From an uncultured Bacilli bacterium (GTDB lineage Bacteria; Bacillota_I; Bacilli_A; RF39; UBA660), in the NCBI GenBank assembly GCA_944373065.1, contig CALWAJ010000001.1, positions 1 to 50,472 of the forward strand: 50,472 nucleotides of DNA, read 5' to 3'. This document shows positions 28,705 through 50,472 of the stretch, piece by piece. Made by a program: the position numbers and the translations under genes. The stretch's first letter is position 1. Each line of letters opens with the position of its first letter. A model generated the notes under the pieces. It worked only from the letters and a program-made list of their open reading frames with translations, did not search any database and had not been told where the DNA came from.

Positions 28705-28751
28705 TGGTGGCTCCAGCGGGAATCGAACCAGCGACACAAGGATTTTCAGTC
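28705..28751 (-). repeat. tRNA-Phe 3' fragment (tRNA nt 30-76 including CCA): element-distal att repeat
   Basis: 47/47 identical to 50182..50228. It ends inside the anticodon stem-loop. Confidence 0.9.
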
Positions 28752-28834
28752 TTTTACCTACTCTTTTTTATAGATTTAAGTAAATCCAAATATCTGACTA
28801 ATTCGGCCACAATTCGTTGTAATATGGGCATTTC

Positions 28835-28901: not shown

Positions 28902-29050
28902 TGTCCACAGTTGTCCACAGATTTTTAGGGGAACTTTTCGTCCACAACTTATATCTGTTTCGCTTGGAACACATATAATATAACATAAAAATAATGGTTA
29001 TGCAACATATTTTCGATAAAAAATAAGAAAAGTGGATTTTTCGTCCACAA
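28902..29050. promoter_or_regulatory. Cluster of four YGTCCACAR motifs (integrase arm-type sites and/or DnaA-box-like sites)
   Basis: tgtccacag 28902-10, tgtccacag 28912-20, cgtccacaa 28939-47, cgtccacaa 29042-50. All are in the same orientation. Confidence 0.6.
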
Positions 29051-29053
29051 TAA

Positions 29054-30538
29054 TCATATTTCTATCTGTATTTCCCTACCAAATTGCCTCTTTACCTTTT
29101 CTAATATTTCTTCATTTGATAACTCACTATATTTATATTTTTCAATACTGCCTAAAGAAGGCATATTAGTAATTAGATAGTTCTTACTTTTATCAATAAT
29201 AGATGATAAATTAAAGAAATCAACATTTTCATTTGAAATTACCTCTAACGTTACTTTTAAATCTTCTAATTTAGATAATTCTGCTTTGCCAATTATGATA
29301 CTTGCAATATGTTCTACTGGAATAGTTAAAACATCATAACCATTTTTGAATAGACTTTCTTTTGAAAAACCATTAAATATACTAGTTGCATATTTTTCTA
29401 TTTTCTTTTTACTTGCATGAACATAACCTCTTGTTGTTCTTAAATCGGAATGACCTGCTAAATCTTGAACATCTCTTTCAGTTAATTTAGGATTATAGTT
29501 CATTTGATTAGTTAAATAATAATGTCTTATACCATGAAATGTAATATCAAGATTTATTTCTTCTCTTGTTCTGAAATCTTTCCAAGTTCTGCTTATTCTT
29601 GATGGTCTATAGAATCCCCCATACTGATTTAAGAATAAATTAGGTATTTCCTTATAATTAGGATTTTTTATTTTCAAATACTTAATAAAATTCTCTCTAT
29701 AAACTAAATACTCATCTAATACATCAAAAAATTCCTCTGGCATTGGTATTTCTCTAACACTACTTTCAGACTTTGGTTTATCTTCTATAAAATTACCATT
29801 TTCATCACGAACTATTACAGTATTAACACAAACTATCATTCTTTCACGATCAATATCTCTATCAAGATGTTGTCCGGCAACTTCTTCGGCTCTTAATCCA
29901 CCAAATAAAGCATACAAAAACTGTAGCCTATCTCTAATTTTTGCCTTCATTATCTTGTTTTTTATTTCGTCTAGTTGTTCAAATTCTGGAACTACTACCT
30001 CTTTAGCCTTAAAATCAGGTGCTTCAATATCACTCATTGGATTTACTCGTAACCAATTCCAGCGACAAAACCTATTAAATAAGATACTTAACATTGAATA
30101 CTCATGATGTAAAGTATTATCTGAAATAGTACCTCCTTGTCTTTTACCATTACCTCTTTTAGGACGTTTTTTCTCTTTAGCAAGTATTTTAGTCAAAAAA
30201 ATTGAATCTATATTAACTATGTCAACATTTCCTATAGCAATTTTCAATATTTCTATATATTTCTTATAACTGGTTATAGTTTGTGGTGCAGGTTTCTTTG
30301 TCTTATTTCTTAACCACTCAAGATATTCATCACAAGCATCAGAAAAGCCAATGTGCTTGACCTCATCGTGCATTCCTAAAGTGTTTTTAGCAAGATATTT
30401 TTCATTGGCTTCTGTTGCTTCTTCAAGTGTATCAAAACTTTCATCATAATCAATAGGAAATTTAGTTGACTTTTGATATCTAACTCTAAATTTACCACTA
30501 GCAGTTTTAGTAATATGTGCAGGTAATTTCTTTGTCAT
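29054..30538 (-). CDS. int: Tyrosine recombinase / phage-type integrase with a ~110-aa C-terminal extension
   Basis: Catalytic signature ...GLRAEE..., HGIRHYY, AGHSDLRTTRGYVH (R...HxxR...Y). 494 aa. Confidence 0.9.
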   Translation of the reverse strand: MTKKLPAHITKTASGKFRVRYQKSTKFPIDYDESFDTLEEATEANEKYLAKNTLGMHDEVKHIGFSDACDEYLEWLRNKTKKPAPQTITSYKKYIEILKIAIGNVDIVNIDSIFLTKILAKEKKRPKRGNGKRQGGTISDNTLHHEYSMLSILFNRFCRWNWLRVNPMSDIEAPDFKAKEVVVPEFEQLDEIKNKIMKAKIRDRLQFLYALFGGLRAEEVAGQHLDRDIDRERMIVCVNTVIVRDENGNFIEDKPKSESSVREIPMPEEFFDVLDEYLVYRENFIKYLKIKNPNYKEIPNLFLNQYGGFYRPSRISRTWKDFRTREEINLDITFHGIRHYYLTNQMNYNPKLTERDVQDLAGHSDLRTTRGYVHASKKKIEKYATSIFNGFSKESLFKNGYDVLTIPVEHIASIIIGKAELSKLEDLKVTLEVISNENVDFFNLSSIIDKSKNYLITNMPSLGSIEKYKYSELSNEEILEKVKRQFGREIQIEI

Positions 30539-30946: not shown

Positions 30947-32347
30947 TTATTCTAATATATTATTTAATTCTAAACTACTTGGAAAAATATCTGATTTATT
31001 AATTATGTCTTTAGCAAAATCAAGATCAGAACGTAATATCTTATTTTCTTCTTTTTCCTTTTCAAGTAATGACTGAAAACTCTCCTCTGGTGCTTCTTCA
31101 TTTTTAATATGCCAATATTTATAATCTACTGGTACTGTTTTAGTATAATCAGAAGAATATCCATCGTATGACTGTAATACACTTATCTCAAATTTATTAG
31201 GATTTTTCCTATAAACATCAGCATATATAGAAAATATGTTATCTGATAGTACTTTAAGTTCTTTAGGAACATTATTCCGAACATCATATAAATAATAACT
31301 ATTTATAGTTGTTAATATTGATATTTTTCTTTCTGTTCCTAAAAGATTTCTAGCTTGGTTTTTCAAATACTTATAATACTCACTAATAATGGTATGTATA
31401 TTAGTAATGCTTCTTCTTCCATTATCAAGCTTCATTTGTGTAAAATCATCAATAACAATTAATGAGAGGCCAGCTCCTGTTGCCTTTAAGAATTTATCCT
31501 CTGCATAAGCAATTAATTTTTGCAAATTATAGCGAGTAGATATGATAAACTCTGACTCATCAAATAAGATTAAGTGCTTTAGATAATTCATTTTAAAATC
31601 AGTATAAACTTTTAGATAATTATCTTTATCATAATCTGAATAAGGATCATCAAAAGTAAATGGCTTATCAAATCTATTTACATCGCAAGAATGCCTTACA
31701 ATAAACCTTTTATATATTGTTTCTTTATTGTAACTTGGCGTTAAATATAGGACATTTTTACCTTGTAATATGGATTCATATGCAACATTAATTGCCCACA
31801 TACTTTTGCTAGTGTCATCTTCTCCGATAATCGTAGTCAAAGTGCCATCTTGTAATCCATAAACTTTCTCATCAATAAAATTTATACAAGATGATATATT
31901 GATTTCAACATCTTCTATTTTTCCTAAATTATCATAGGCATCATCATCTCTTATATTAATAATATCTACATATCTATCAAAAAATGCTTTAGTAGCATTT
32001 TTGCTAATTTCACCATGTTCTAACTCATTAATTAATAACTCTAGTAATTCATCTTCCTTTTCTTTTTTTCTTTCCTTAATAAACTCATCAATTTTACTTT
32101 CTAACTCTAATCGCTCATATGCTTCTATACTTTCAAAATCAGGTATGTCTTCTTTATCTAATAACTGTGTTAAAGACTTCTTTAAATCTATCGTATTAGT
32201 TAATTCAAGTTGTTCTAACATAGAATTACACATTTCTGATTCTTCAATAGTTAAGACATCTGCTTCCTTTAAATAATTAATGTTAGATATTAGTTCTTGA
32301 TTAGTAACATTAGTTTTAAAGATTCTTATAAATTCTTCTGAAACCAT
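30947..32347 (-). CDS. DnaB_C/RecA-fold ATPase (replicative-helicase-like) with an atypical Walker A
   Basis: IIGEDDTSKSMWAINVAYESILQGKNVLYLTPS (GxxxxSKS) and Walker B LSLIVIDDFTQM. Start refined to the ATG at 32345-47, preceded by AAGGAGG. Confidence 0.5.
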   Translation of the reverse strand: MVSEEFIRIFKTNVTNQELISNINYLKEADVLTIEESEMCNSMLEQLELTNTIDLKKSLTQLLDKEDIPDFESIEAYERLELESKIDEFIKERKKEKEDELLELLINELEHGEISKNATKAFFDRYVDIINIRDDDAYDNLGKIEDVEINISSCINFIDEKVYGLQDGTLTTIIGEDDTSKSMWAINVAYESILQGKNVLYLTPSYNKETIYKRFIVRHSCDVNRFDKPFTFDDPYSDYDKDNYLKVYTDFKMNYLKHLILFDESEFIISTRYNLQKLIAYAEDKFLKATGAGLSLIVIDDFTQMKLDNGRRSITNIHTIISEYYKYLKNQARNLLGTERKISILTTINSYYLYDVRNNVPKELKVLSDNIFSIYADVYRKNPNKFEISVLQSYDGYSSDYTKTVPVDYKYWHIKNEEAPEESFQSLLEKEKEENKILRSDLDFAKDIINKSDIFPSSLELNNILE

Positions 32348-32464
32348 GTTTACCTCCTTTTTTACCACTCTTATATGCAAGAAATTAGAACCGTATTTTC
32401 CTTATAATATAAGAGTTTTATAATATTCATTTGAACTTTATTTTCATCATTTTGAACTTTACTT

Positions 32465-35942: not shown

Positions 35943-36124
35943 TTTTGTATCCTTTCTAAATTCAAATGCCCAATAAAAGTCATCTTGACTTTATTGAACA
36001 ATTTTAATATAAATAACATCAATTTATGTAGATAATTAACTATCAATAGACTGCCCAAAAAAAGTATGCTTATATTGAACACCTAAAATTACAAATAAAG
36101 GCATCTATATAATGCCCTTATTAT

Positions 36125-36433
36125 CTAATAATTAGTTTTATTCAATTTCTCTGCATCTTCCTTTGAAGTTAAAAATGTTGCTTTATTAATAACTACTACC
36201 ATTTCATTATCAATAACTCGAAGTTGTCCTTTTACTCCTATTATCGAGTTAATGGCACAATACTCATTTATATACTTAACTTTCTCTTTAGGAACAATAC
36301 ATTTGATAAGATCTGCTTCATAAATACCATCTTTATTTTTTTCGCTACTTGGTATTCGCAATATCAGTATTACTTTATTATATTTTTGAATAAGTTCTTT
36401 AAACATTCCTACTAATATACACATATTAAGCAT
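36125..36433 (-). CDS. Short SSB-like OB-fold protein (no acidic C-terminal tail)
   Basis: MLNMCILVG..., EADLIKCIV, GVKGQLRV parallel the MLNRVVLVGRL / EADFINCV / VDGRLQ pattern of bacterial SSB. Confidence 0.55.
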   Translation of the reverse strand: MLNMCILVGMFKELIQKYNKVILILRIPSSEKNKDGIYEADLIKCIVPKEKVKYINEYCAINSIIGVKGQLRVIDNEMVVVINKATFLTSKEDAEKLNKTNY

Positions 36434-36434
36434 T

Positions 36435-36641
36435 TCATATACCTCCTTTCAAACTACCTTTTACGGTACTGTAAATGTTACCAAAGTTAATAGTAATTAC
36501 AAGATATACTGGAAAAATAATAAAAAATAACAACGTGTAAACGTTCTTTAGTTGATTAAACAATGAACTACCAAAAAAATAACACAAGAAACCGTTTAAA
36601 GTGGAAAAGAAAATTAGTATATGAAAAAAGAACTTTTGCAA
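36435..36641 (-). CDS. Small two-TM membrane protein
   Basis: 68 aa with two hydrophobic helices. Function unknown. Confidence 0.4.
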   Translation of the reverse strand: MQKFFFHILIFFSTLNGFLCYFFGSSLFNQLKNVYTLLFFIIFPVYLVITINFGNIYSTVKGSLKGGI

Positions 36642-36673
36642 GTTCTCTTAAATATTTAGTCACTAAATAATAT

Positions 36674-37225
36674 TTATAATTGATTACGATTTAAAGAATT
36701 AATTTTAATTATCAATCCCCAAAAGAATCTGACTTTTAGTCGTTCTTCGAACGATTCTAAATCCTTTGGAGCAATGTTAGATGCCAAAACTATTTGCTTA
36801 CTATTAGCATATAAACTATTAAATATATGGAAAAATTCCTTTTGTATTTCATAATTGCTACTTAAGTAATTAATATCATCAAAAAGTAATACATCTATAT
36901 CATTAAATTTATTGCTAAAGATAGAGTTATCTTCTTTCTTACTATTTTCAAAGTCATAAATAAATTGTTCTGATGAAATATAAAGAACTTTTAAATTGCT
37001 ATTATCTATAATGTAATTGCCAATGGCGTGCAAAAGATGTGTTTTCCCTGCATTGTTTTCTCCATATATAAATAGTGGATTATATATTTTACTTGGATCT
37101 TGAGCTACATTTAAAGCAAATTCATAAGCAACTTTATTATTCATTTCATCTATAACGAAATTGTCAAATGTATATTTATTATTAAAGTTAGATCTTACTT
37201 TTTCATTACTTTTAATTAATGTCAT
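36674..37225 (-). CDS. DnaA AAA+ domain III-only protein (no domains I/II, no lid, no DNA-binding domain IV)
   Basis: YTFDNFV...YNPLFIYGENNAGKTHLLHAIGNY (Walker A), DVLLFDDINYL (Walker B), KEFFHIFNSLYANSKQIVLASN, LKVRFFWGL (box VII Arg). Colinear with DnaA residues from the TFDNFV box to RFEWGL. Confidence 0.75.
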   Translation of the reverse strand: MTLIKSNEKVRSNFNNKYTFDNFVIDEMNNKVAYEFALNVAQDPSKIYNPLFIYGENNAGKTHLLHAIGNYIIDNSNLKVLYISSEQFIYDFENSKKEDNSIFSNKFNDIDVLLFDDINYLSSNYEIQKEFFHIFNSLYANSKQIVLASNIAPKDLESFEERLKVRFFWGLIIKINSLNRNQL

Positions 37226-37378
37226 AAACTCTTCATCTCCTTATGATATATTAAACTACTAACAGTAAACCCTTTAAAGACACAAATTAAACAAAAATGT
37301 CAAACTTTTATATATCATTACAATATACTATAAACCTTTTATTTATTGAAAGTTAAAAGGACCTTTTAACAAGTCCTT

Positions 37379-37663
37379 CTAATCTATAAATTTATATTCT
37401 CTTAAAAACGTTATTATTTCATCTTCTGAAATATCTCCTACCCTAGTATCAACAATACCATTTCCAACTATTATGAGTGTAGGTGTACCACTTAAATTAA
37501 ACCCATCTGTTTTGAATATTGCCTCTAATTCGTTAAGCTCATTTGAATTTAAACTACTAATATCCATTTCATATGAGAGTAATTTATTATTTTCTAACAC
37601 TTTAGTAAGTTTTTCCTTAAAGCTCTCACAATGTGAGCAACCTTTCTGACTTAAATATACCAT
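37379..37663 (-). CDS. Thioredoxin-fold protein with a CxxC (CSHC) active site
   Basis: GCSHCESFK...GTPTLIIVGNG pattern (cis-Pro loop). The frame stays open for 20 codons upstream to the TGA of the preceding gene. Confidence 0.7.
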   Translation of the reverse strand: MVYLSQKGCSHCESFKEKLTKVLENNKLLSYEMDISSLNSNELNELEAIFKTDGFNLSGTPTLIIVGNGIVDTRVGDISEDEIITFLREYKFID

Positions 37664-37723: not shown

Positions 37724-38923
37724 TCATTCATATTCAGTGGTTAAATCAAAATTATTAAGAAATACATTGACACTATTCATATCTTGATATCCCTCTAATA
37801 CGTCAATTATTTCACCATGACCTACTATTAACAATAAAGGAACTCCATATCCATCTTTAAAATAATCTTCATTTTCTGTTATTTTTTTCATATCTACTAT
37901 ATTAGCATTAAGACGATTAATTTCTATACCTCTAAGATAAGCAACATCTTCCATAACTTTATTCATCATATTGCAATATTCGCTTGAACCATCACTTCTT
38001 GTAATATATATTAAAGTTTGAGCATTTTGTTCTTTTAGTCTTATATAATCATCTGCATTTATATTTTTGAAAAAGGTTGGAGGTAAAGTTTCATTACTAT
38101 AAACGTTATCTTCTTGTTCTGATTCTTCTGGAATCTCAAAATTTATCCTTTCACAATACGTATTTTGTAATGCTTTAAATTCAGAATAAGGCATTTCTTC
38201 GCCATCATACATATATTTCCTTAATTCTACTTTTTCATTATTAATATCAAAAGACATTGTAATACCTGCATTTTCATCACTTCCACTTATTCCACTAACA
38301 GTTACAGTAACATTTCCTTGCATATCTATTTCACTTTGCCAGTCTTGATTAACTACGATGTTATTTATAAGTTCTTCATATGTACCATTATTACAAGAAT
38401 CAAGTTTATAATCATAGACTTGATCTATATATTTACTAGTATCAGTTAATAGAAATAAAGGATTAATTCTTAATATAATCATTACAATAAAAACAGTTGC
38501 CGATATTATCCATGCTATAAAATAACTTGGATTTTGATTTAATACTCTAAACCTTTTAAATAGATATTTTGGAATTATAATGTTATAAATTTTATTTATG
38601 CCTAAAGTGTTCTCATCTAAACCTAATTTATTTAGTTTCTTATAATCTAATACTATAAATAAAATACTGAATATACACATTATCAATATTAAAATTATAA
38701 TTCCTAGATAATAAGATTTAGTTAAATACCAAACTGATAAATATATTAAAATTGATATAATTGGTAAAAGTGAAACTAACCATATGAATTTATTGGATAC
38801 TTTTTTATTGTCTATTTTTGGTGTATCTTTCTTTTTATTTTTTAAAGGACAACCACAATGAATACAAACATCTAAAGTATCACTAACCTCTTTTCCACAT
38901 TCCTTACATTTTATTAAAGCCAT
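37724..38923 (-). CDS. Zn-ribbon / 3-TM membrane protein with an extracytoplasmic domain and a C-terminal monothiol thioredoxin-like domain
   Basis: MALIKCKECGKEVSD...CIHCG Zn ribbon and three TM helices. The C-terminus aligns by eye to the 94-aa Trx (YITRSDGSSEYC..., GVPLLLIVGHG). Confidence 0.7.
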   Translation of the reverse strand: MALIKCKECGKEVSDTLDVCIHCGCPLKNKKKDTPKIDNKKVSNKFIWLVSLLPIISILIYLSVWYLTKSYYLGIIILILIMCIFSILFIVLDYKKLNKLGLDENTLGINKIYNIIIPKYLFKRFRVLNQNPSYFIAWIISATVFIVMIILRINPLFLLTDTSKYIDQVYDYKLDSCNNGTYEELINNIVVNQDWQSEIDMQGNVTVTVSGISGSDENAGITMSFDINNEKVELRKYMYDGEEMPYSEFKALQNTYCERINFEIPEESEQEDNVYSNETLPPTFFKNINADDYIRLKEQNAQTLIYITRSDGSSEYCNMMNKVMEDVAYLRGIEINRLNANIVDMKKITENEDYFKDGYGVPLLLIVGHGEIIDVLEGYQDMNSVNVFLNNFDLTTEYE

Positions 38924-38938: not shown

Positions 38939-40228
38939 CTATATTACCTCTACTAAAGAAAGTTTATTTCCTTCATGTATAAAAATGAGATTAGCAAATG
39001 TTGGATAACCTAAGTCTTCTTTATACACAATTGAGACATCTACTTGATACGCAAAACTGTCATTAAAGTCAGGATTATAATTATAATTTATATTTTCGAT
39101 TTTCTCGATAAAAACATCTGTTACTTCTGGTAATTCACTGACATCATAATCTTCATCGTCTAAATAATAATAAACGCCATTTTTTAAAATTCTTTCCATT
39201 TTATCTCTAACATTTGAATGGACAAAATCCATACCACCAATATCATCACTAGATGTTTTATCATTTAAAGTATATAAATCCATTATAAACATTTTACTTA
39301 TTTGTGTAATATAAGCTTTTTCATCAATTTCTTGCTCATTTAAAATTCTTTCTAATTGATGGAACATTTCTTTATACCTATCATTTCTTGTTGGTTTTAA
39401 AATATAGTCATAGCCTTCTATTTCTTCTGGCATTTCAAAGTTTACCATTTCACAATATGTATTTTGTAATGATTCATAATCTGAAATAGAATACTCATTT
39501 TCGTTTTCAAAAAACTCTTTTAATTTAACCTCTTCATTGTTGATAGAAAAGGACATTATAATATTGTTTCCTCCAGAGTTTCGTAAATTTGATATACCAT
39601 TAACAGTTACAGTAACATTTCCTTGCATATCTATTTCACTTTTCCAACTTTGATTAATAATAAGCTTATTGACAAGTTCTTCTACCGTACCATTACTACA
39701 AGAATCAAGTTTATAATCATAGACTTGATCTATATATTTACTAGTATCAGTTAATAGAAATAAAGGATTAATTCTTAATATAATCATTACAATAAAAACA
39801 GTTGCCGATATTATCCATGCTATAAAATAACTTGGATTTTGATTTAATACTCTAAACCTTTTAAATAGATATTTTGGAATTATAATGTTATAAATTTTAT
39901 TTATGCCTAAAGTGTTCTCATCTAAACCTAATTTATTTAGTTTCTTATAATCTAATACTATAAATAAAATACTGAATATACACATTATCAATATTAAAAT
40001 TATAATTCCTAGATAATAAGATTTAGTTAAATACCAAACTGATAAATATATTAAAATTGATATAATTGGTAAAAGTGAAACTAACCATATGAATTTATTG
40101 GATACTTTTTTATTGTCTATTTTTGGTGTATCTTTCTTTTTATTTTTTAAAGGACAACCACAATGAATACAAACATCTAAAGTATCACTAACCTCTTTTC
40201 CACATTCCTTACATTTTATTAAAGCCAT
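38939..40228 (-). CDS. Zn-ribbon / 3-TM membrane protein, paralog with a different C-terminal domain
   Basis: The first 178 aa are identical to 37724..38923. The middle domain is similar but clearly diverged (many substitutions by eye). The C-terminal ~170 aa is unrelated. Confidence 0.7.
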   Translation of the reverse strand: MALIKCKECGKEVSDTLDVCIHCGCPLKNKKKDTPKIDNKKVSNKFIWLVSLLPIISILIYLSVWYLTKSYYLGIIILILIMCIFSILFIVLDYKKLNKLGLDENTLGINKIYNIIIPKYLFKRFRVLNQNPSYFIAWIISATVFIVMIILRINPLFLLTDTSKYIDQVYDYKLDSCSNGTVEELVNKLIINQSWKSEIDMQGNVTVTVNGISNLRNSGGNNIIMSFSINNEEVKLKEFFENENEYSISDYESLQNTYCEMVNFEMPEEIEGYDYILKPTRNDRYKEMFHQLERILNEQEIDEKAYITQISKMFIMDLYTLNDKTSSDDIGGMDFVHSNVRDKMERILKNGVYYYLDDEDYDVSELPEVTDVFIEKIENINYNYNPDFNDSFAYQVDVSIVYKEDLGYPTFANLIFIHEGNKLSLVEVI

Positions 40229-40243: not shown

Positions 40244-40654
40244 TTATGAATACATAACTGCTCCCACTATGGAATTAATTAATGTGATTATAAAGAAAAT
40301 AATACTTAAAGCTAAACCAGTAATAGCCATTGCCTTTTTATTTGAATTTAAACCAAAGGAACTAAAAATAATTCCAAGTATTGTAGTAGGATAACCTACT
40401 AAAGGTAATAACCAAGTTATAATAGAGCAAAGTCCTAATATCATTCCTACTAAAGCATAAGTATTTCTTTTTTGAAAATTATCATTTTTATTAACAAGAT
40501 GAAAACCACAGTAGCTACATATAGTATCATCTTTACTAACACCTTTGCCACACTCAGGACAAACTCTTTGTTTCAATTCATAGCCACAATGAATACATAC
40601 TGTAGCTTGATCGCTTACTTCTTTTCCACATTCCTTACATTTTATTAGTGCCAT
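40244..40654 (-). CDS. Double Zn-ribbon small membrane protein (2 TM)
   Basis: MALIKCKECGKEVSD...CIHCG then CPECG...CSYCG, followed by two TM helices. Start refined to the second ATG (AAAGGAG 8 nt upstream). Confidence 0.65.
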   Translation of the reverse strand: MALIKCKECGKEVSDQATVCIHCGYELKQRVCPECGKGVSKDDTICSYCGFHLVNKNDNFQKRNTYALVGMILGLCSIITWLLPLVGYPTTILGIIFSSFGLNSNKKAMAITGLALSIIFFIITLINSIVGAVMYS

Positions 40655-41045
40655 TGTCATTACTCCTTTTTAAAGTATCTGTATATCCATCAGTATCTGT
40701 ACATCTGATTTTATCTTTATTCATTTCACACTCATATTTCTTTATATTGTTAGAATAAAGATTAAATTTTACTTTATTGCCAATTTTTGTAATATCTTCT
40801 GGAATATATGTATTATTATCTCCAAACTCAACATCTACTGGTTTGTTATAATCACTTGAATATCCAAATTTAACCTCATTGGCATTTACAACTATTTCTG
40901 CTGTTAAATAATACCCCTCTTGATAGAAATAAACATATTTATATTCATTTCTATATTCTTCTGGTATTGAAGACAATTGTTTACTATCATTACAGCCTGT
41001 CAGCATAACTGTAACTATTAATAAACATAAAATTTTCTTTATCAT
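40635..41045 (-). CDS. Lipoprotein
   Basis: Signal peptide with lipobox VMLTGC. 136 aa. Confidence 0.65.
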   Translation of the reverse strand: MIKKILCLLIVTVMLTGCNDSKQLSSIPEEYRNEYKYVYFYQEGYYLTAEIVVNANEVKFGYSSDYNKPVDVEFGDNNTYIPEDITKIGNKVKFNLYSNNIKKYECEMNKDKIRCTDTDGYTDTLKRSNDNGTNKM

Positions 41046-43939: not shown

Positions 43940-44605
43940 CTAATTTGCAACAGTTTTTAGAAAATATTCCCATTTATTTAGTTTTAGGTTTGGTACTATA
44001 TCACTGTTATTAAACTTGTTCCAATAATTAAGAATATCTTTGATATAAAGTAAACTTGGTAGTTTTTCATTCACTGCTACTTTTAAGGCTTTAAGGACTA
44101 AAGTAGCATTGTAAGTTTTAATTAATGTGTTAATTATAGTTTTTTCTTCATTAGTTAGAAATCGATAAAATGCTTCTTCAAATTCATCATAAACTTTTAT
44201 TTCTTCACTTATAAAATTTTTGTTATGTATGAAACTTTTAGAGTGGTTATTTACATTTTTGATGATGAAAAGTAATTTATCATAATAAGGACTAATTATT
44301 TTAAGTACATCATTAGTAATATAATGTGATGTTCCTCTACTTGTGTTATTAATTCTAATAATAAACTTACCTTCTCTATTCTTTAAACATCTTTTGTTTT
44401 TAGCAAGAAAAGGACGGACATTTTCAATAATAGTTCTAATTTTAGTCATAGTTTCTTCATTTAATTGGAATAGTTTTTCACCTTTATTAGGACCATAAAC
44501 TATTCCATTATCATAAACAGTTATTTTATAGTATTGATTTAGTTGTAAACTGATATACCATTTGTTAGTTCTCATATTGATTCTTCCTTTCATAGTATCG
44601 TGCAA
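43940..44605 (-). CDS. DnaD-domain-like replication protein
   Basis: The C-terminal ...TLVLKALKVAVNEKLPSLLYIKDILNYWNK resembles the DnaD/DnaB_2 C-terminal motif (YI..IL..W). Confidence 0.4.
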   Translation of the reverse strand: MHDTMKGRINMRTNKWYISLQLNQYYKITVYDNGIVYGPNKGEKLFQLNEETMTKIRTIIENVRPFLAKNKRCLKNREGKFIIRINNTSRGTSHYITNDVLKIISPYYDKLLFIIKNVNNHSKSFIHNKNFISEEIKVYDEFEEAFYRFLTNEEKTIINTLIKTYNATLVLKALKVAVNEKLPSLLYIKDILNYWNKFNNSDIVPNLKLNKWEYFLKTVAN

Positions 44606-47972: not shown

Positions 47973-48527
47973 TTATTTACTAACGTTGAAAGAATACTCA
48001 ATGTATGTAAATATTATTCTATCTGGAATATTTGCATCTATAGAGACATTTTGTAAATGCTCCAATGTTGGTTTTATTCCATCCGCCTCTTTACGCAACT
48101 GTGAAAGTATAATAATTGGCACATTATATTCTACTGCAATTGATTTTAATTCTCGCAATACATCATTACTTTCTTGGATATTAAAACGAATTTCTAATAA
48201 TTCTATATAATCAATAATAACTATATCTATATCTTTAGATTCTTCAAGAAATTTTTTTATGTCGTTCATAGATTTCGTATCAAGTCCATTAATGATATTT
48301 AAATTTTCATTAAGATAACTGTCATTTAGTCTTTCTTTAATACGTGAATATAAAAATTCTAGTGAACTCTCAAAATTAAAAAATAATATTTTTTTATTAT
48401 TTTCACTTGCTATTTCACTTGCTAATTTCAAACTAAAAAATGTCTTACCAGTGTATGTTCTTCCTGCTACGAGTATTAAATCATTAGAATTAATTGTTTT
48501 TGCTAATTCGTTTATCTCTTTATTCAT
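47973..48527 (-). CDS. Small RecA/DnaB_C/KaiC-like P-loop ATPase
   Basis: Walker A LVAGRTYTGKTFFSLKLA, Walker B IVIIDYIELL, then IIILSQLRKE (DnaB-like). Confidence 0.6.
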   Translation of the reverse strand: MNKEINELAKTINSNDLILVAGRTYTGKTFFSLKLASEIASENNKKILFFNFESSLEFLYSRIKERLNDSYLNENLNIINGLDTKSMNDIKKFLEESKDIDIVIIDYIELLEIRFNIQESNDVLRELKSIAVEYNVPIIILSQLRKEADGIKPTLEHLQNVSIDANIPDRIIFTYIEYSFNVSK

Positions 48528-50080: not shown

Positions 50081-50134
50081 CTGTGGACAAAAATAGTATA
50101 CTGTGGACGAAAATTTCAAATATTTTGTGGACAA
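50081..50134. promoter_or_regulatory. Cluster of three TGTGGAC(A/G)A motifs, inverted relative to the left-end cluster
   Basis: ctgtggacaa 50081-90, ctgtggacga 50101-10, tgtggacaa 50126-34. Confidence 0.6.
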
Positions 50135-50181: not shown

Positions 50182-50257
50182 TGGTGGCTCCAGCGGGAAT
50201 CGAACCAGCGACACAAGGATTTTCAGTCCTTTGCTCTACCGACTGAGCTATGAAGCC
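50182..50257 (-). tRNA. tRNA-Phe: tRNA-Phe (anticodon GAA), intact, CCA encoded
   Basis: The reverse complement folds as GGCTTCA-TA-GCTC-AGTCGGTA-GAGC-A-AAGGA-CTGAAAA-TCCTT-GTGTC-GCTGG-TTCGATT-CCCGC-TGGAGCC-A-CCA. There is one T-stem mismatch (U51/C63). Confidence 0.9.
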
Positions 50258-50314: not shown

Positions 50315-50335
50315 TTGTCCACACTCTGTCCACAG
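50315..50335. promoter_or_regulatory. Two more GTCCACA motifs between the intact and the decayed tRNA-Phe copies
   Basis: ttgtccaca 50315-23 and ctgtccacag 50326-35, in the same orientation as the left-end cluster. Confidence 0.55.
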
Positions 50336-50400: not shown

Positions 50401-50461
50401 GTGGCAGAACCTAGGACAAAGGATTTTCAGTCCTTTGCTCTACCGACTGAGCTATGAAGCC
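50401..50461 (-). pseudogene. Decayed tRNA-Phe copy: nt 1-43 are perfect, the 3' half is degenerate with a T-arm deletion
   Basis: 50419-50461 is identical to 50215-50257. Downstream it reads TGTCCTAGGTTC--TGCCAC, against GTGTCGCTGGTTCGATTCCCGCTGGAGCCACCA in the intact gene. Confidence 0.75.
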
Positions 50462-50472
50462 AAAAAAAATGG

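Follow-up and report, generated by a model that had tools for sequence, protein, structure and literature searches.

An element-borne DnaA base domain

We analysed a window of 50,472 nt from an uncultured Bacilli bacterium (contig CALWAJ010000001.1, positions 1 to 50,472 of the forward strand) and found that an integrative element inserted there in tRNA-Phe carries a gene for a 183-amino-acid (183-aa) protein derived from the initiator DnaA. As judged from its profile matches and predicted fold, this protein is a member of the Bac_DnaA domain family and is neither a DnaA equivalog nor Hda. By their alignment to DnaA, the residues for nucleotide binding and for the presentation of an arginine finger to a neighbouring AAA+ site are retained, and those that contact single-stranded DNA (ssDNA) are mostly replaced. 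We propose, with a probability of about 40%, that the protein is a DnaA base-domain mimic that would act on host initiation through protein contacts. This functional reading is attractive and directly testable, and it is in its entirety one that we infer. The gene is the following:

36674..37225, minus strand: DnaA-derived AAA+ base-domain (IIIa-only) gene, 183 aa, recognised from profile, PDB and fold matches

Identity of the 183-aa protein

The open reading frame (ORF) starts with ATG and ends with TAA. Its borders are the same under genetic codes 4 and 11, as an in-frame TAA is located 15 nt 5′ of the ATG; the choice of code is relevant here because the hosts are Tenericutes-like Bacilli. 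In Pfam, the protein matched Bac_DnaA (PF00308) at 7.7e-52 and 176.2 bits (cut-off 23), with residues 15-173 aligned to profile positions 2-161/162. In NCBIfam, the DnaA model TIGR00362 gave 3.3e-60 and 204.4 bits, which misses the full-length equivalog cut-off of 343.9, the match being confined to profile positions 97-270 of 437. The Hda model TIGR03420 reached 70.6 bits (1.3e-19), under its cut-off of 194.8, and the other Hda hidden Markov models (HMMs) gave at most 35 bits. Placement with DnaC/IstB was rejected, as the 176-204 bits for DnaA compare with 34 bits for IstB_IS21 (2.7e-8, Pfam), 28 for DnaI and 22 for DnaC (both 1e-6 or weaker, NCBIfam). Two PHROG families named 'DnaC-like helicase loader' also matched, at 4e-20 and 7e-14, the second of these being a profile of 168 positions.

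Structure comparisons agree with the placement in the DnaA clade. The top PDB match by sequence was B. subtilis DnaA (8bv3/8btg; 3e-49, residues 109-273). The AlphaFold2 (AF2) model showed a compact five-stranded alpha/beta domain with both helices of the initiator-specific motif present (predicted local distance difference test, pLDDT, 89.6; predicted template modelling score, pTM, 0.86). The best Foldseek match of this model was domain III of B. subtilis DnaA, at 50% identity and a root-mean-square deviation (rmsd) of 1.1-1.2 Å, followed by Hda (template modelling score 0.72, 15-17% identity) and then by DnaC/DnaI/IstB. Profiles, translation and superposition of the AF2 model thus confirm the sequence-only reading of the gene, which had described an AAA+ core colinear with DnaA, including Walker A, Walker B and box VII.

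The same reading had stated that domains I and II, the lid with sensor II and domain IV are missing, and this also held. The protein gave no DnaA_N or Bac_DnaA_C match in Pfam, and it ends 12 residues past beta5 (WGLIIKINSLNRNQL*), so that there is no lid subdomain IIIb and no sensor II arginine. At the other end, the AAA+ fold of the AF2 model begins after only about 14 disordered residues, with no N-terminal helicase-binding domain. When five full-length Bacilli DnaAs were compared with the window by tblastn, only their residues ~100-283 matched, at 36695-37219, and no remnant of domains I/II, the lid or domain IV was found anywhere in it.

Residues retained and replaced

Residues were numbered through a HMMER alignment to B. 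subtilis (Bsu) DnaA, and conservation was taken over 118 DnaA hits. The positions of interest are listed below:

37040..37063, minus strand: Walker A (P-loop) GENNAGKT, Lys61 and Thr62 kept
36875..36889, minus strand: Walker B LLFDD, both Asp kept (Asp116, Asp117)
36719..36742, minus strand: box VII RLKVRFFW, Arg162 and the arginine finger Arg166 (Bsu R264) kept
36902..36973, minus strand: initiator-specific-motif helices with ssDNA contacts replaced (N187 to Y90, I190 to E93, I193 to K96, R202 to S104)
36854..36856, minus strand: Asn124 at the position of Bsu Lys222, an essential ssDNA-phosphate contact
36776..36778, minus strand: sensor 1 position, Asn150; Asp in 97% of DnaAs

The P-loop retains Gly55 and Gly60 next to Lys61 and Thr62, with Asn58 and Ala59 in place of a Gly and a Leu that are nearly invariant in DnaA (Bsu G154 and L155). 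His133 (Bsu H231), Trp169 and Leu171 (Bsu L269) are retained as well. Other near-invariant DnaA positions are altered, namely D248 to N (sensor 1), G123 to D, A131 to E, A132 to F, Q217 to N and R206 to N. The last of these corresponds to N108 and lies within the initiator-specific-motif segment, which has a net charge of -4.

The contacts of DnaA to ssDNA (the DnaA-trio) have been defined by a cryo-EM structure of the basal unwinding system (BUS; PMC10721633) and by mutagenesis (PMC6669920), and the contacting residues are essential in B. subtilis DnaA (PMC6669920; PMC10721633). At the six positions N187, I190, I193, R202, K222 and E228, where DnaAs conserve the residue class to 76-95%, the 183-aa protein has Y, E, K, S, N and E, so that only E228 is kept. 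The R202 position is Ser in this allele and Arg in 6 of 17 variants. Kept ssDNA contacts (1/6) compare with 80 of 98 other class-conserved positions (Fisher p=0.0019), and the net charge of the protein is -7 vs. a mean of -0.6 (sd 2.4) for DnaA base domains, which together indicate that the loss of ssDNA contacts was selective and went beyond general drift. From this pattern, DnaA-like ssDNA binding is very unlikely, and without domain IV recognition of DnaA boxes is not possible.

The sequence-only reading had called the protein Hda-like in architecture. A true Hda analogue would be tethered to the clamp and would trigger hydrolysis of DnaA-ATP by its arginine finger, as in regulatory inactivation of DnaA (RIDA). 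R166 and W169 are kept like R153 and W156 of Hda, R166 is invariant in 17/17 variants, and Hda is the second-best relative by both structure and HMM score. Yet, three of the four defining features that could be examined fail, these being the HMM score (70.6 vs. 194.8 bits, with 15-17% identity as against 50% to DnaA), the clamp motif and the lid with sensor II (PMC5397184), and only the arginine finger is present. No clamp-binding motif of the QL[SD]LF type was seen at either end of the protein, its N-terminus being MTLIKSNEKVRSNFNNK. The 'Hda-like' label could therefore not be upheld, and a true Hda analogue appears barely credible.

Conservation, variants and selection

Clustered at 90%, the protein falls in a group of 63 members. 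The 17 variants examined each have a length of 183 aa, are free of frameshifts and stops, and keep GKT, DD, R162 and R166. A divergent allele is set apart by 20 nucleotides and 8 residues, which gives a ratio of nonsynonymous to synonymous polymorphism (pN/pS) of 0.16, and a second allele differs at 18 nucleotides and 6 residues. As read from these alleles, the gene is intact and purifying selection acts on its protein. Genuine full-length DnaAs of uncultured Bacilli come next in similarity, at 50-55% identity; as the Bacilli DnaAs share 58-86% with one another over the same region, the gene is placed on a long branch.

The gene is identical over 552/552 nt in 12 loci, and the adjacent gene for an SSB-like protein differs in up to 16/309 nt; the backbones of these loci are 93-97% identical (L001-L013, L020 and L021 vs. 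window 36076-37378). The pattern suggests mosaic recombination, its breakpoint lying close to the 3′ end of the DnaA-like gene. Since the loci were retrieved by exact protein sequence, the 552/552 identity indicates a recently shared recombinant segment and is no sign of selection.

Some variants of the element do not carry the gene. In L032, another cargo gene is followed by a hairpin and directly by the SSB-like gene. L033/L034 retain the upstream region together with 38 nt from the start of the gene, and a hairpin-containing segment of about 65 nt replaces 37187-36601. Both types retain the SSB-like gene and the element backbone, indicating that the DnaA-like gene is accessory and dispensable for the backbone. 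A pseudogene of a longer dnaA was excluded, as no DnaA remnant is found outside the ORF and homologous elements show either the same 183-aa ORF or its clean absence. The truncated-copy alternative, to be recognised by a full-length dnaA in homologous elements, thus fails, since none of them carries one.

We also considered that the gene is a functionless relic, that is, a captured fragment of a Bacilli dnaA that hitch-hikes in a successful element. The gene has a narrow, shallow distribution, being confined to one element family with all members at least 90% identical, it is deleted in some element variants, and near-invariant DnaA residues are altered (G123D, A131E, A132F, G154N, D248N). At the same time, a relic is not expected to show a pN/pS of 0.16 or equal length in 17/17 variants, nor to keep its catalytic and arginine-finger residues when about half of the positions have changed and the losses are concentrated on DNA contacts. 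The gene also has a ribosome-binding site (RBS) and a terminator of its own, and the predicted fold is confident and compact. We consider a relic highly improbable.

Proposed action on host initiation

In the reading that we prefer, the 183-aa protein would not be an initiator and would work via nucleotide-dependent AAA+ protein contacts. The likeliest target would be host DnaA and initiation, because an arginine finger is useful only at an AAA+/AAA+ interface and DnaA is the closest compatible partner. The protein may enter oligomers of host DnaA as a subunit unable to bind DNA or to prolong the filament; once inserted, it would cap or poison the DnaA filament, or would promote ATP hydrolysis by its arginine finger. 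Another option is that it titrates the binding partners of this DnaA domain. With either option, the element would alter initiation of the host chromosome. Precedents for mobile elements that target initiation proteins are given by YfdR (PMC4776307) and ORF104 (PMC4887207).

Capping or poisoning of the filament is plausible. The more specific picture of a 'poison subunit' or decoy without DNA contacts, which would co-assemble with host DnaA or titrate regulators of domain III so that the element switches initiation off or on, is possible, yet we hold it to be somewhat doubtful.

Several observations weigh against an action on host initiation. Eight residues of the AAA+/AAA+ interface are essential in B. 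subtilis DnaA, namely R202, R206, F218, H231, R264, L269, G317 and R321 (PMC6669920). While H231, R264 and L269 are retained and F218 is a Tyr, the change of R206 to N is fixed, R202 is S in this allele, F128 is V, and G317 and R321 are gone with the lid. Both AAA+/AAA+ faces thus carry alterations (R206N, F128V, N187Y and the missing lid), which makes canonical docking and co-assembly with DnaA uncertain. The change of P-loop G154 to N together with the missing lid may weaken nucleotide binding. The family is also shallow, all known members being at least 90% identical and from one element family, and conservation inside it therefore says little. The 100% nucleotide identity across loci comes partly from retrieval by exact protein sequence and partly from recombination.

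Should the poison-subunit reading be true, the protein would be the first initiator-derived modulator of initiation in Bacillota and the first known on a mobile element. It would be an example of a mobile element that turns a fragment of the host initiator against, or in support of, the host. A minimised DnaA base domain with a nucleotide site and an arginine finger and without DNA contacts could serve as a genetic tool for the dynamics of the DnaA filament, and the protein could be a template for inhibitors of initiation.

Cassette and neighbouring genes

Comparison across loci showed that the gene is part of a 1.3-kb cassette (37378-36075) with sharp homology borders, which consists of an intergenic region, the DnaA-like gene, a 240-nt spacer, the 102-aa gene for the SSB-like protein and a terminator, with exchangeable cargo upstream. 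The elements of this unit are as follows:

37353..37382, minus strand: hairpin and U-run ending the upstream thioredoxin-like gene (-13.9 kcal/mol, z -3.8)
37235..37241, minus strand: Shine-Dalgarno AAGGAGA, about 10 nt 5′ of the ATG, read from the sequence
36620..36649, minus strand: terminator-like hairpin and U6 directly 3′ of the DnaA-like gene
36125..36433, minus strand: divergent SSB-like (OB-fold) gene, 102 aa, always downstream, including in variants without the DnaA-like gene
36094..36122, minus strand: terminator-like hairpin 3′ of the SSB-like gene, the downstream edge of the cassette

The hairpin at 37353..37382 marks the upstream edge of the cassette, with the homology break at 37378. 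With its own RBS and flanking hairpin/U-run structures, the DnaA-like gene has the appearance of a monocistronic, moron-like unit.

The sequence-only reading had placed the gene in a run with an SSB-like gene and a small membrane protein. The first neighbour appears to be a weak but specific SSB relative: the NCBIfam SSB models gave 3.4e-5 on the 102-aa protein, far under their cut-offs, and a profile of its family matched only SSBs in PDB (7e-6 to 1e-3). Its AF2 model had a pLDDT of 43, obtained with a shallow alignment. The second neighbour is doubtful. It would correspond to a 68-aa hydrophobic ORF with a TTG start in the spacer (36435-36641, minus strand). Most element variants leave this ORF open; neither its start nor its 3′ end is constant among them, and L032 has a frameshift in it. 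Variants without the DnaA-like gene also conserve the spacer from 36600 downward, and this stretch may hold a promoter or leader of the SSB-like gene rather than the 68-aa ORF.

In the cargo upstream of the cassette, three consecutive genes (37724-38923, 38939-40228 and 40244-40660) have a common zinc-ribbon N-terminus (MALIKCKECGKEVSD...). The first two are paralogs with a near-identical N-terminal membrane part of about 170 aa and C-terminal halves that have diverged. Other variants of the element have a 350-aa gene and a gene with a Flg_new domain in place of this block.

The integrative element and its hosts

The 21.5-kb element spans about 28756-50181 and is flanked by 51-nt direct repeats (98% identity). 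In the index of the assembly collection, 240 blocks list the exact 183-aa protein, in every case within this element family, so that the gene is element-borne, as had been proposed from the sequence. Features of the element are listed below:

28705..28755, no strand assigned: att direct repeat, copy of the tRNA-Phe 3′ 51 nt, at the integrase end
29054..30538, minus strand: tyrosine integrase, 494 aa, at one element end (Phage_integrase 1.8e-15)
30947-32380 and 47973-48527: DnaB-like ATPases
43940-44605: DnaD/DnaB_2-domain protein (PHROG DnaD-like loader)
50182..50257, minus strand: tRNA-Phe(GAA), the 3′ 51 nt of which (50182-50232) form the other att repeat

The element also encodes PcfJ, PcfK, a resolvase and variable cargo. 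Neither conjugation nor capsid genes were recognised in its 21.5 kb, and it has no second AAA+ gene of the initiator clade. The ORF at 47973-48527 (minus strand, 184 aa) holds only the RecA-like C-terminal domain of the DnaB type (TIGR00665 2.6e-21; NF004629 2.7e-17). The element thereby contains three minimised replication proteins, namely the 183-aa DnaA core, the 184-aa DnaB-type protein and the 102-aa SSB-like protein.

The main rival to an action on host initiation is that the protein is an accessory of the element's own replication. According to this, the DnaA-derived module would replace a loader or organiser of the DnaC/DnaI type after excision, with the DnaD-like protein, the DnaB-like ATPases and the SSB-like protein of the element as partners. 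The presence of DnaD-like and DnaB-like genes, the SSB-like gene directly downstream, the lack of any other initiator-clade AAA+ gene in the element and the PHROG 'DnaC-like helicase loader' matches speak in its favour. However, variants without the DnaA-like gene keep the remaining backbone, and the gene forms a transcription unit of its own, some 7 kb away from that for the DnaD-like protein. The 14 residues before the AAA+ fold leave no N-terminal helicase-binding domain, the ssDNA contacts, which loaders use too, are replaced, and the DnaC/DnaI HMM scores are far under that of DnaA. We find this alternative unlikely. If the protein did serve replication of the element, it would mean that a DnaA fragment was recruited to a loader-like role, in parallel to the origin proposed for loaders of the DnaC type.

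DnaA boxes or an origin in the element were considered and rejected, as TTATCCACA was found 21 times with at most one mismatch, which is the level of chance (17 expected). Repeats of TGTGGAC(A/G)A, one mismatch from the DnaA box, were found 11 times vs. 1.2 expected. Nine of the 11 cluster at both element ends in inverted orientation (28903-29049, 50082-50132, 50317-50334). They occur only together with the 494-aa integrase module and at fixed spacing (103, 27 and 10 nt), and are for this reason probably arm-type sites of the integrase. Two more TGTGGAC motifs are situated outside the element, between tRNA-Phe and a partial second copy of it. This copy (50419-50462) matches the 5′ part of tRNA-Phe at 100% over 44 nt, 204 nt past the complete gene and close to the window's end at 50472, and it may have been left behind by a previous integration or by a tandem element.

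The hosts are uncultured low-GC gut Bacilli (Ca. Onthousia and 'Tenericutes' metagenome-assembled genomes), among them 'uncultured Tenericutes UMGS592' and Ca. Onthousia excrementipullorum. The chromosomal flanks beside the integrase vary among loci, and three recombinase/helicase modules occur. Searches of IMG/VR with the protein and with its alignment returned no relative, and the element was absent there; phage and plasmid collections gave no DNA match, and no annotated phage or plasmid record with a close relative of the protein was found. A viral origin was rejected, the protein matches in phage and plasmid collections being full-length chromosomal dnaA genes, of 50% identity or less, from records that are mislabelled or unverified.

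Other short or unusual DnaA-like proteins

Most short DnaA-like hits on long contigs were frameshifted high-GC dnaA genes with junk tails. P0192 (183 aa) was set aside as unreliable, being a singleton on a 659-nt contig. Those that look real are P0110, P0047 and possibly P0021. P0110 (172 aa, core only) has the same structural start and stop borders as the 183-aa protein and a mobile-element-like context; it adjoins Macro-domain and HsdM (restriction-modification) genes (L014/L015). P0047 (252 aa), unlike the 183-aa protein, keeps the lid of the AAA+ domain, and belongs to a phage-like polymerase module, where, in 35 contigs, it is flanked by Lactamase_B-like genes on one side and split PolIII-alpha genes on the other (L016-L019). 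As both are only 42-48% identical to the 183-aa protein, they represent separate lineages, and as both keep I190 and K222, the erasure of DNA contacts is specific to the 183-aa family. The top scorers of an exhaustive search, P0135-P0147, are proteins of 560-700 aa (two of ~1900 aa) with two tandem DnaA-type AAA+ domains; in P0135 and P0139, the two sequences of this set that were read, no obvious domain IV was seen.

The moron-like layout beside variable cargo, and the Macro-domain and restriction-modification genes next to the core-only P0110, would also suit an unrelated partner. The DnaA fold would then be a generic nucleotide-dependent module in a defence or anti-defence switch, or in a regulator of excision or transfer. 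Against this, the neighbourhood indicates no specific partner, and PADLOC gives weak matches to generic P-loops only, on which ground the assignment of the DnaA-like gene to a defence system was dropped. We regard an unrelated partner as quite unlikely.

Comparison with known systems

The closest known structure is domain III of B. subtilis DnaA (8BV3/8BTG), with 50-51% identity over residues 109-273 and an rmsd of 1.1-1.2 Å. Common to both are the Walker A Lys/Thr, Walker B, the box VII finger and the initiator-specific-motif helices; unlike DnaA, the 183-aa protein consists of the base subdomain only, with ssDNA contacts replaced, Asn at sensor 1 and Asn at P-loop G154. Bacillota control DnaA by unrelated proteins, namely YabA, Soj, SirA and DnaD. 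A regulator derived from DnaA, in the manner of Hda, is not known from Bacillota. Literature searches found none there, nor any paper on DnaA-core-only proteins from mobile elements.

Hda has a base and a lid, sensor II and an N-terminal QLSLF clamp-binding motif (PMC5397184). The 183-aa protein shares with Hda/HdaA that it is a short DnaA-related AAA+ protein without DNA-binding domains, in which the arginine finger is followed three residues on by a Trp (R166 and W169 here, R153 and W156 in Hda). It differs in having neither the lid with sensor II nor the clamp motif, in its low identity (15-17%) and sub-threshold score against the Hda HMM, and in being element-borne, whereas Hda is chromosomal. 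HdaB, the product of a chromosomal alphaproteobacterial gene, resembles DnaA domain IV, unlike the AAA+ core considered here. HdaB of Caulobacter is reported to be a short DnaA-related protein that modulates initiation control and does not itself initiate (PMC7049699).

DnaC/DnaI/IstB and the phage 'DnaC-like' proteins (phrog_50, phrog_3277) belong to the same initiator AAA+ clade, and some phage versions are similarly short. The context of the element, with DnaD-like, DnaB-like and SSB-like genes, adds to this likeness. Yet, similarity of the 183-aa protein to the loaders is far weaker than to DnaA, and it lacks their N-terminal helicase-binding domain. The proposed function has its nearest counterparts in prophage YfdR, which binds DnaA (PMC4776307), and in ORF104 of phage 77, which binds DnaI (PMC4887207). 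Both are mobile-element proteins that bind a host initiation protein and modulate replication, and the 183-aa protein would follow the same logic. They differ in that YfdR and ORF104 have unrelated folds, which bind DnaA domain I or the DnaI AAA+ domain, whereas the candidate effector described here is itself derived from DnaA.

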